Below are positions 1 to 3,000 of a stretch of 6,035 bases of DNA, piece by piece. Each line of letters begins with the position of its first letter. Position 1 is the stretch's first letter. The stretch lies in the IMG/VR virus record IMGVR_UViG_2537562231_000024, positions 1 to 6,035 of that record. One strand, 5' to 3'. Position numbers: made by a program. This DNA is from a virus (lineage: Duplodnaviria > Heunggongvirae > Uroviricota > Caudoviricetes).

Positions 1-3000
1 GTTCGCAGTGTGAACACCGTTGGCAAATCGGCATTCGTGGAGGCTGTTGGTCAGCCGAGTGATGATGCATCCGGCTATCTGGATTTTTTCAAAGGCGAGA
101 TAGGGAAAACCCATCTGGCTCAGGAGCTGTGGACGCAGATTGATAACGGTCAGCTTGCGCCTGACCTGACTGAAATCAGGACGTCCATAACGGATGTCAG
201 CAATGAAAATAACACAGACCGTCAATAAGAAACTGGAAGACCAGAGTGCAGCGATCCAGCAGATACAGAAGGTTCAGGTTGATACAAATAATAACCTGAA
301 CAGCATGTGGGCAGTGAAGCTGCAGCAGATGCAGGACGGACGCCTTTATATTGCGGGTATCGGGTGCCGGTATTGAGAACACCCCCGACGGCATGCAGAG
401 TCAGGTGCTGCTGGCAGCAGACAGGATTGCGATGATTAATCCTGCGAATGGCAACACAAAGCCGATGTTTGTTGGTCAGGGCGATCAGATATTCATGAAT
501 GAAGTGTTCCTGAAATATCTGACGGCTCCCACCATTACCAGCGGCGGTAATCCTCCGGCATTTTCCCTGACACCAGACGGGAGACTGACGGCGAAAAATG
601 CGGATATCAGTGGCAGTGTGAATGCGAACTCAGGAGCGCTCAACAATGTCACGATTAACCAGAACTGTACGATTAAGGGCATGCTGGAGGCGACCCAGGT
701 CAGAGGGGATTTCGTTAAAGCTGTATCAAAAGCCTTCCCGAAAAAAGTCGGTACGTGGGGTAACACGGAAACACCAAACGGTACGGTTACAGTCACCATC
801 AGCGATGATCATAACTTTGACCGCCAGATTATTATTCCGCCCATTATTTTTAACGGTATAGCGTATGACGATCCGGGGAGCGGAAATAACCCAGGAGGCA
901 CGCGATACACGGGTTATGGTTTTGAAGTTCGCAAAAACGGCGTATTAATCGCATCCAGAGAAACTAAAGGGGCCATTCCCGGTAGTTACAGTGCAGTTAT
1001 TGATATGCCTAGTGGTGGTGGTAGCGTCACTCTGGAGTTTAAGATTTTCCAGAAAGGCAATCAGGGGGCAGGCAATATCACCGACTGTACGGTGATTGTG
1101 ACCAAAAAAGCTGCTTCCGGCATCAGTATTCGTTGAAATATTTATAACCCCAATAAAGGGCGTCAGGAATGACGCCTTTTTTATTGCAGAAAAGCGAGAG
1201 GTAATTATGCGTAAACTTTATGCCGCCATTTTGTCCGCAGCCATTTATCTGACCGTATCCGGTGCGCCTGCATGGGCGTCTGAGCAGCAGGCCACGCTGA
1301 GCGCGGGGTATCTTCATGCCCGGACGAACGCTCCCGGTAGCGATAATCTTAACGGGATTAACGTGAAATACCGTTATGAATTCACGGACACGCTGGGGCT
1401 GGTGACGTCATTCAGCTATGCAGGAGACAGGAATCGCCAGATTACCCGTTACAGCGATACCCGCTGGCATGAAGATTCCGTGCGTAACCGCTGGTTCAGC
1501 GTAATGGCGGGGCCGTCTGTGCGCGTGAATGAATGGTTCAGCGCGTATGCGATGGCGGGTGTGGCTTACAGCCGTGTGTCGACTTTCTCCGGGGATTATC
1601 TCCGCGTAACTGACAACAAGGGGAAAACGCATGATGTGCTGACCGGAAGTGATGACGGTCGCCACAGCAACACGTCTCTGGCGTGGGGAGCTGGCGTGCA
1701 GTTTAACCCGATCGAATCCGTGGCCATTGATATTGCTTATGAAGGCTCCGGCAGTGGCGACTGGCGCACTGACGGTTTCATCGTGGGTGTCGGTTATAAA
1801 TTCTGATTAGCCAGGTAACACAGTGTTATGACAGCCCGCCGGTTCAGGCGGGCCTTTTTGTGGGGTGAATATGGCAGTAAAGATTTCAGGTGTACTGAAA
1901 GACGGCACAGGAAAACCGGTAGAGAACTGCACCATTCAACTGAAAGCCAGACGGACCAGCAGCACGGTGGTGGTGAACACGGTGGCCTCTGAAAATCCGG
2001 ATGAAGCCGGTCGTTACAGCATGGACGTTGAGTACGGTCAGTACAGCGTCATTCTGTTGGTGGAAGGATTCCCGCCGTCACATGCCGGGACCATCACCGT
2101 GTATGAAGATTCTCAACCGGGGACGCTGAATGATTTTCTCGGTGCCATGTCGGAGGATGACGTCCGGCCGGAGGCACTGCGTCGTTTTGAACTGATGGTG
2201 GAAGAAGCGGCGCGTCACGCTGAGGAGGCGAAGAGAATGCCGGAGAGGCGGAGACGTCCGCGAGGAATGCCGGCATATCAGCCAGTCAGGCAGAAGAGAG
2301 CGCTGCACATGCTGACACTTCAGCAGGGGATGCATCGGAGTCAGCCCGGCAGGCGGCAGAAAGTGCAGCCTCAGCAAAGCAGTCAGAGGATGCGTCCTCG
2401 TCCTCGGCTTCTGCGGCCGCTCAAAAAGCCAGTGAGTCATCACAAAGTGCAGCAGAAGCTGAATTGTCAAGAAAGACGGCAGAAAGTGCAGCCGGTAATG
2501 CAGCCAGGGATGCAACGACCGCAACAGAAAAAGCCCGGGAGTCAGCAGAAAGCGCACAGTCAGCGGAACAAAGCAGGATAGCGGCGGAAGAGGCCGTAAA
2601 CCGAATCCCCACCGTGGTGGGACCTCCCGGGCCAAAGGGGGAACAGGGGCCCGCGGGTCCTCAGGGGCCGAAGGGAGATAAAGGAGAGCGTGGTGACACC
2701 GGCCCTGTCGGGGCAACCGGCGAACGGGGACCGGCAGGTGATGCTGGTCCGGCAGGCCCGCAGGGGCCGAAAGGCGACAGGGGAGAGCGGGGAGAGACCG
2801 GGCTGACAGGAAGTACAGGTCCACAGGGTCCAAAGGGAGATACCGGGGCAGCAGGCCCGGCAGGCCCACAGGGACCGAAAGGAGAAACAGGTGTGGCTGG
2901 CCCGGTAGGGGCAACCGGACCTCAGGGGCCGAAGGGCGACCCGGGGGAGACGCAAATACGGTTCCGTATGGGGCCGGGAAACATTATTGAGACAAACAGC

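Follow-up and report, generated by a model that had tools for sequence, protein, structure and literature searches.

Introduction

In phage lambda the tail-tip gene J is followed by lom, stf and tfa, and its product gpJ (PDB 8iyk, 8xcj) carries the same three C-terminal domains as the J gene that we describe here. This gene lies in a stretch of 6,035 nucleotides, positions 1 to 6,035 of IMG/VR virus record IMGVR_UViG_2537562231_000024 (the whole stretch is referred to below as the window), which is identical to bases 1-6035 of ADUM01000074.1, a contig of 120,573 bp from the 2010 draft assembly of Escherichia coli 3431 (GCA_000184765.2). The window contains the distal end of a lambdoid, effector-carrying prophage that adjoins btsS (yehU) in this strain, followed by cargo genes. 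Residues 789-833 and 838-1131 of lambda gpJ can be aligned with the product of the window gene, and the last ~135 residues of the latter, comprising the receptor-binding domain, diverge from lambda as expected with a different receptor specificity. The window J differs from lambda gpJ in being split over three frames by two surplus bases. We propose, with a probability of about 0.8, that both of these insertions are consensus errors, arising from sequencing or assembly of repeated sequence at a contig end, and not mutations of the bacterium.

Comparison with other systems frames this proposal. The gpJ of E. coli O157:H7 strain F6294 (WP_150385481.1, NZ_CP038372.1) is a single open reading frame (ORF) of 1163 codons, with A3 and GG at the two affected sites, whose last 377 residues are identical to those of the window J after repair of its frame; the gene sits in another prophage context with nleC downstream. 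A prophage of two further genomes, termed L066 and L069 below, is collinear with the whole window, encodes an identical Lom and has the same junction of IS1 with espV, likewise without nleA, but has none of the five frame-breaking insertions or deletions (indels) of the window. The window resembles pyrosequencing-era draft artefacts in that 1-bp changes private to one record split conserved genes, with a concentration in multi-copy sequence and towards the end of a contig, without accompanying substitutions. It differs from them in that the affected runs are only 2-3 bases long and two changes in IS1 are not simple changes of homopolymer length. Genuinely frameshifted tail genes of cryptic lambdoid prophages provide another parallel, as relatives of this prophage carry shifted copies of J or stf.

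Two frame breaks in the J gene

Three-frame translation of the window permits a continuous reading of J only across frames 1, 2 and 3, and not in the single frame that characterizes the gpJ family. Window base 1 is the first base of the draft contig, which begins inside J and cuts the gene there, and both J indels lie no more than 365 bases from this contig end. The parts of the gene are as follows.

1..1136, plus strand: J C-terminus, the last 377 codons of a tail-tip gene of lambda type
1..208, plus strand: J segment in frame 1; translation ends ...SITDVSNE (GAA at 205-207); PF24489 (Ig_J_second) at residues 1-30 of the repaired protein
206..209, plus strand: A4 run with one surplus A, frame 1 to frame 2; intact J has A3 (GAAAT) in the alignments
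209..361, plus strand: J segment in frame 2, ITQTVNKK...LYIAGI; GenBank EFU98674.1 (203-376), a 57-aa 'conserved hypothetical protein'
362..364, plus strand: G3 run with one surplus G, frame 2 to frame 3; intact J has GG (ATCGGTGCC) in the alignments
363..1136, plus strand: J segment in frame 3, (G)AGIENTPDG... to the stop TGA at 1134-1136; tail-tip fibre domain and C-terminal receptor-binding domain

Nucleotide alignment with the intact J genes of three complete genomes identified exactly two single-base surpluses in the window. At site 1 the window reads GAAAAT, with one A too many (A4 at 206-209 versus A3 in the intact genes), and frame 1 remains open for six further codons past the shift, until TAA at 226-228. 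At site 2 it reads ATCGGGTGCC, with one G too many (G3 at 362-364 versus GG). Removal of one A and one G generates a 377-codon frame with 100% protein identity to residues 787-1163 of the F6294 gpJ, and over 1138 bases the nucleotide sequences differ only at window 582, by a synonymous change. With 0 amino-acid changes and a single synonymous base in 377 codons after repair, there is no sign of relaxed constraint. These comparisons confirm that the two frame breaks are present in the deposited sequence, the match being deterministic and not a chance pattern.

The first-pass annotation of the window had stated that J could be followed only by switching from frame 1 to 2 at the A4 run, which the translations and the alignments bear out, and from frame 2 to 3 at 362-365, where the single-base gain and the shift stand but the run is G3 at 362-364 and base 365 is a T. 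It had proposed aligning the frame segments to an intact J homologue, and it was this alignment that pinned the two surplus bases to 206-209 and 362-364. Its description of both as gains at short homopolymers holds insofar as each is a one-base gain in a run; the term is generous for runs of only 3 and 2 bases in the intact genes.

Homology identifies the gene as an ordinary lambda-type gpJ, the predicted central fibre of the tail tip with a C-terminal receptor-binding domain. The repaired protein matches PF24489 (27.2 bits; cut-off 27), PF09327 (110.8 bits, 5.8e-32) and PF12421 (90.5 bits, 1.3e-25), all three of which are also found on the unrepaired fragments, and it aligns with residues 838-1131 of lambda gpJ (8iyk_J) at E = 3.3e-101, with similar results for 8xcj and 9wca. 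The gene order J-lom-stf-tfa is seen inside the window, and tail assembly protein I is encoded 5' of J in relatives (L001-L003 and L063-L071 of our set of loci).

Absence of the J indels from other genomes

We searched 5426 complete E. coli genomes using 61-base queries centred on each site. The site 1 insertion was present at 0 of 1129 matching places (963 complete E. coli records), and the listed best matches to this query were 98.4% identical with 61 query bases against 60 record bases, equivalent to a one-base gap. For site 2, the insertion was present at 0 of 4236 matching places (2591 complete E. coli records). With a gapped pattern that accepts either run length, site 1 was located on 45 metagenome contigs and site 2 in 4 species-representative genomes, and the longer run was absent from all of them; counting both sites over these loci gave 47 instances of A3 and 0 of A4, and 42 of GG and 0 of GGG. 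An inherited lesion would be shared with related genomes or with paralogues, and these searches found zero other occurrences of either indel, including in L066 and L069.

Exact protein look-ups led to the same pattern. The 57-aa product of the middle segment occurs on one contig among ~15 billion proteins, that of E. coli 3431 itself (EFU98674.1); because this ORF requires both indels, the rarity of the product reflects the rarity of the indel pair. The exact 247-aa C-terminal J product occurs on eight contigs, of which all but the source are contig-edge partials that start at window-equivalent 391-393 and were discarded as a check of site 2, being uninformative there. Five other draft contigs have no indels relative to the window over 393-1696. 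Strain SCPM-O-B-9504 was considered as a direct check of J and rejected, as it has another J allele at the same site (68% identity over window 1-668). A contig from a look-up of the InsB fragment (L012) was considered as an independent assembly, but the IS1 on it is an unrelated one, carried by a plasmid and located at the edge of the contig.

Independent assemblies of the prophage

Exact look-up of the Lom protein identified the prophage in two chromosome-level assemblies, GCA_040813315.1 (L066) and CP146555.1 (L069). L066 aligns with window 4-6035 as one collinear block at 99.0% identity, with the same IS1 site and the same junction between IS1 and espV, and L069 matches in the same manner except for an extra IS66 insertion. 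Beyond J, the window carries the following features.

1207..1806, plus strand: lom (Ail/Lom outer-membrane protein, PF06316), intact; identical 199-aa product in many assemblies
1871..3183, plus strand: stf side tail-fibre gene with a collagen-like Gly-X-Y region, frame-broken by one A lost at 2234
3185..3454, plus strand: tail-fibre C-terminal/assembly gene (PF06820), intact
3516..4284, minus strand: IS1 copy with private indels at two sites, 3971-3973 and 4114
4374..5582, minus strand: gene of a 402-aa EspV-like type III effector, intact; directly abuts IS1, without the intervening nleA of other relatives
5787-6035, minus strand: dinI-like gene

In both L066 and L069, J encodes one intact product of 1163 aa and IS1, at the same insertion site, one intact product of 232 aa. 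The stf gene is called as 431 aa in L066 and is one long open frame in L069, where the alignment is interrupted by IS66 near window 3330. Relative to L066 the window has five frame-breaking indel events, two in J, one in stf and two in IS1, and there are no differences at all over window 4285-6035.

The three events outside J are as private as those within it. In stf, one A is lost at 2234 (GAAGAAGAA in relatives and GAAGAGAA in the window), a deletion found at 0 of 3070 places in complete E. coli genomes. In IS1, the A6C slippery site for programmed frameshifting is lost through a change at 3971-3973 of CCTGAGTTTTTT into CCTGTAGTTTT, and an extra T at 4114, not in a homopolymer, breaks insA. 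Neither IS1 indel was found in any of the complete E. coli genomes (~72,000 IS1 places), and the best matches differ only by these gap columns. We noted that the two non-homopolymer insertions in IS1 fit pyrosequencing null-flow positions, but this observation has almost no discriminating power and was not used.

The stf gene also has an 18-bp in-frame length difference at window 2644-2661, equivalent to six codons of the Gly-X-Y repeats (437 codons versus 431 in L066). Substitutions relative to L066 are clustered in window 2524-3409, a pattern which suggests recombination among paralogous fibre genes.

Location of the indels and of repeated sequence

All five indel events fall within the first 4284 bases of 13.9 kb for which we could compare the contig with relatives, and there are none in the following 9.6 kb of unique sequence; if events were spread evenly over 13.9 kb, the probability of five in the first 4284 bases would be ~0.003. 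Contig positions 5545-13927, which run from the far end of espV through dinI, btsS, btsR and yehS into part of yehM, have 8 substitutions and 0 indels in 8383 bases relative to SCPM-O-B-9504. Outside the mosaic region of stf, the window and L066 are separated by ~4 substitutions and 5 indels, a ratio near 1. Small indels are reported at about one tenth the rate of substitutions in mutation-accumulation experiments with E. coli. Given this ratio of 0.1, the probability that 5 of 6 private changes would be indels is ~3e-5.

The affected genes are repeated ones. The L066 and L069 genomes each carry three prophage copies that are 100% alike over window-equivalent 1-1800, covering the J C-terminus and lom, and ~96-99% alike through stf, and nearly all E. 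coli have IS1 in multiple copies, at a median of 11 places per genome. Five unrelated draft assemblies (L006-L010) start a contig at window-equivalent 391-393, inside J, so this is a recurrent repeat boundary that assemblers cannot pass. Together, the exact three-copy repeat and the contig breaks at 391-393 imply that the first ~390 bases are of a kind that defeats assemblers. The 3431 contig extends ~390 bases past this break point, and it is there that both J indels lie. An argument from apparent private mismatches at contig positions 1 and 3 was dropped, as both are also in the O157 F6294 allele.

Structural changes and relatives of the prophage

An IS1 after tfa is also present in strain 13E0780 (L002), which keeps nleA. 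In that strain nleA, with ~2.1 kb in total content between IS1 and espV, occupies the interval that is missing from the window, L066 and L069, and window 4284/4285 joins the right end of IS1 to the 3' flank of espV. As the same junction is found in L066 and L069, the deletion of nleA is real, and its position looks like that of an IS1-adjacent deletion. We found no 9-bp target duplication around IS1 in either the window or L002.

The 402-aa product has no Pfam family; it is named 'secretion protein EspV / putative type III effector' by several sources and its exact sequence occurs on 322 contigs. SCPM-O-B-9504 (NZ_CP144930.1) has 99.9% identity to strain 3431 over 8.4 kb of chromosomal flank and a prophage at the same btsS-adjacent site, the annotation of which includes an nleB with an internal stop, an espV split by ISCro1 and a tccP2. 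Another locus (CYAW01000085.1, 1-5930) has three consecutive J-like ORFs (974+, 758 and 519 aa) 5' of an identical lom, which may reflect a misassembly or else a partial duplication of J in tandem.

Discussion

The two indels that split J are in the deposited record, are unique to it and lie at the end of a contig, and the other indels unique to this record are confined to repeated genes. This combination of a contig-end location in sequence that is repeated in relatives, restriction to one assembly, an excess of indels and clean unique flanks is that of an artefact, and we infer that the J indels are missing from the DNA of strain 3431. A plausible route would start from the J C-terminus and lom being an exact multi-copy repeat at the contig end, as in the close relatives. 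An assembler could then build the contig end from the ends of reads and from reads of several prophage copies, and single-base miscalls might survive into the consensus at this position.

Several observations weigh against this explanation. The affected runs are short, being A3 and G2 in intact genes, which is unlike the classic error in long homopolymers, and the A6, A7, T6 and T7 runs in window 1-3496 all have the same length as in O157:H7 F6294; indels at A3 and G2 runs are, however, equally atypical for natural slippage. A literature search for strain 3431 and the platform used to sequence it turned up no paper. The copy number of the J module was seen in relatives, and strain 3431 itself may have several copies. 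Real or apparent frameshifts commonly affect the tail genes of related prophages: a +C insertion near locus position 4431 is found in two of the three J copies of CP146555.1, GCA_040813315.1 has two frameshifted copies of stf, and the annotation of SCPM-O-B-9504 marks both gpJ and lom as frameshifted. Real decay therefore starts from an appreciable prior. Finally, the prophage is truly degraded at the structural level, by insertion of IS1 and loss of nleA.

These observations would be accommodated if J had become a pseudogene in strain 3431 alone through two independent +1 insertions, an outcome that we regard as unlikely but the most credible of the alternatives. The structural damage is common to relatives, the further frame breaks in stf and IS1 would be in keeping with a dead element, and the clean core genes that flank the prophage show that the assembly is not poor in general. 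The +C insertion of CP146555.1 is common to two paralogous J copies, which argues that this lesion is real, whereas the window indels are shared with nothing, not even with carriers of the same prophage. Pseudogenization also has to explain five private indels against at most ~4 substitutions on a very short branch, far from the natural spectrum, in a gene whose repaired product has not acquired any amino-acid change. The location of both indels in the first 365 bases of the contig is a further difficulty, as two random sites in the J piece would both fall in the first 392 of 1136 bases with a probability of ~0.12. Extending this account to accept all five indels as real would point away from ordinary neutral decay and towards a mutational process that favours indels and acts specifically on prophage and IS DNA; replication slippage or error-prone repair, in the course of either abortive induction or gene conversion between paralogous prophages, could in principle act in this manner, but we consider such a process very improbable.

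A consensus error could also have been seeded by real variation. If one real indel is carried by one of several near-identical copies of J in strain 3431, then the record may be a chimeric consensus in which the pair of indels was never on one molecule. The exact three-copy repeat in two relatives, the frameshifts in some of their paralogous J copies and the breaks of other assemblies at 391-393 are compatible with this idea, but a majority over three copies should give the intact form and no copy with either indel is present in any other genome; its likelihood is very small. Programmed recoding, in which the ribosome would shift +1 twice to make full-length J, is rejected. Nothing speaks for it other than the otherwise perfect conservation of the three J segments, while all homologues examined are in one frame with one base fewer per site, there is no prfB-type site and no stop, rare or stall codon at the shift points, and two consecutive +1 events would be unprecedented for the gpJ family. 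Consensus error thus remains our favoured explanation for both J indels. The first-pass annotation had left a choice between decay of a cryptic prophage and sequencing error: the private nature of the indels, their position at the contig end and the intact J of relatives give the error branch the better support, and the picture of a decaying prophage holds only structurally. It had also held that the status of J decides whether the tail module could be functional, and the anatomy behind this view is correct; the outcome depends as much on the stf frameshift at 2234, which it did not mention.

Were the indels real, the J product would stop shortly after residue ~855 and have neither tip fibre nor receptor-binding domain, and in combination with the break in stf the tail module would be non-functional and any particles non-infectious, as in routine prophage domestication. 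If they are artefacts, then the J-lom-stf-tfa block is intact, as it is in L066. Either outcome is routine and implies no new biology, and the value of this analysis is as a caution on draft annotation. In the GenBank annotation J appears as a 57-aa 'conserved hypothetical protein' and a separate fragment of 247 aa, with stf and IS1 fragmented likewise, and pseudogene counts or 'defective prophage' calls made from the ADUM01000074.1 record would probably be wrong.

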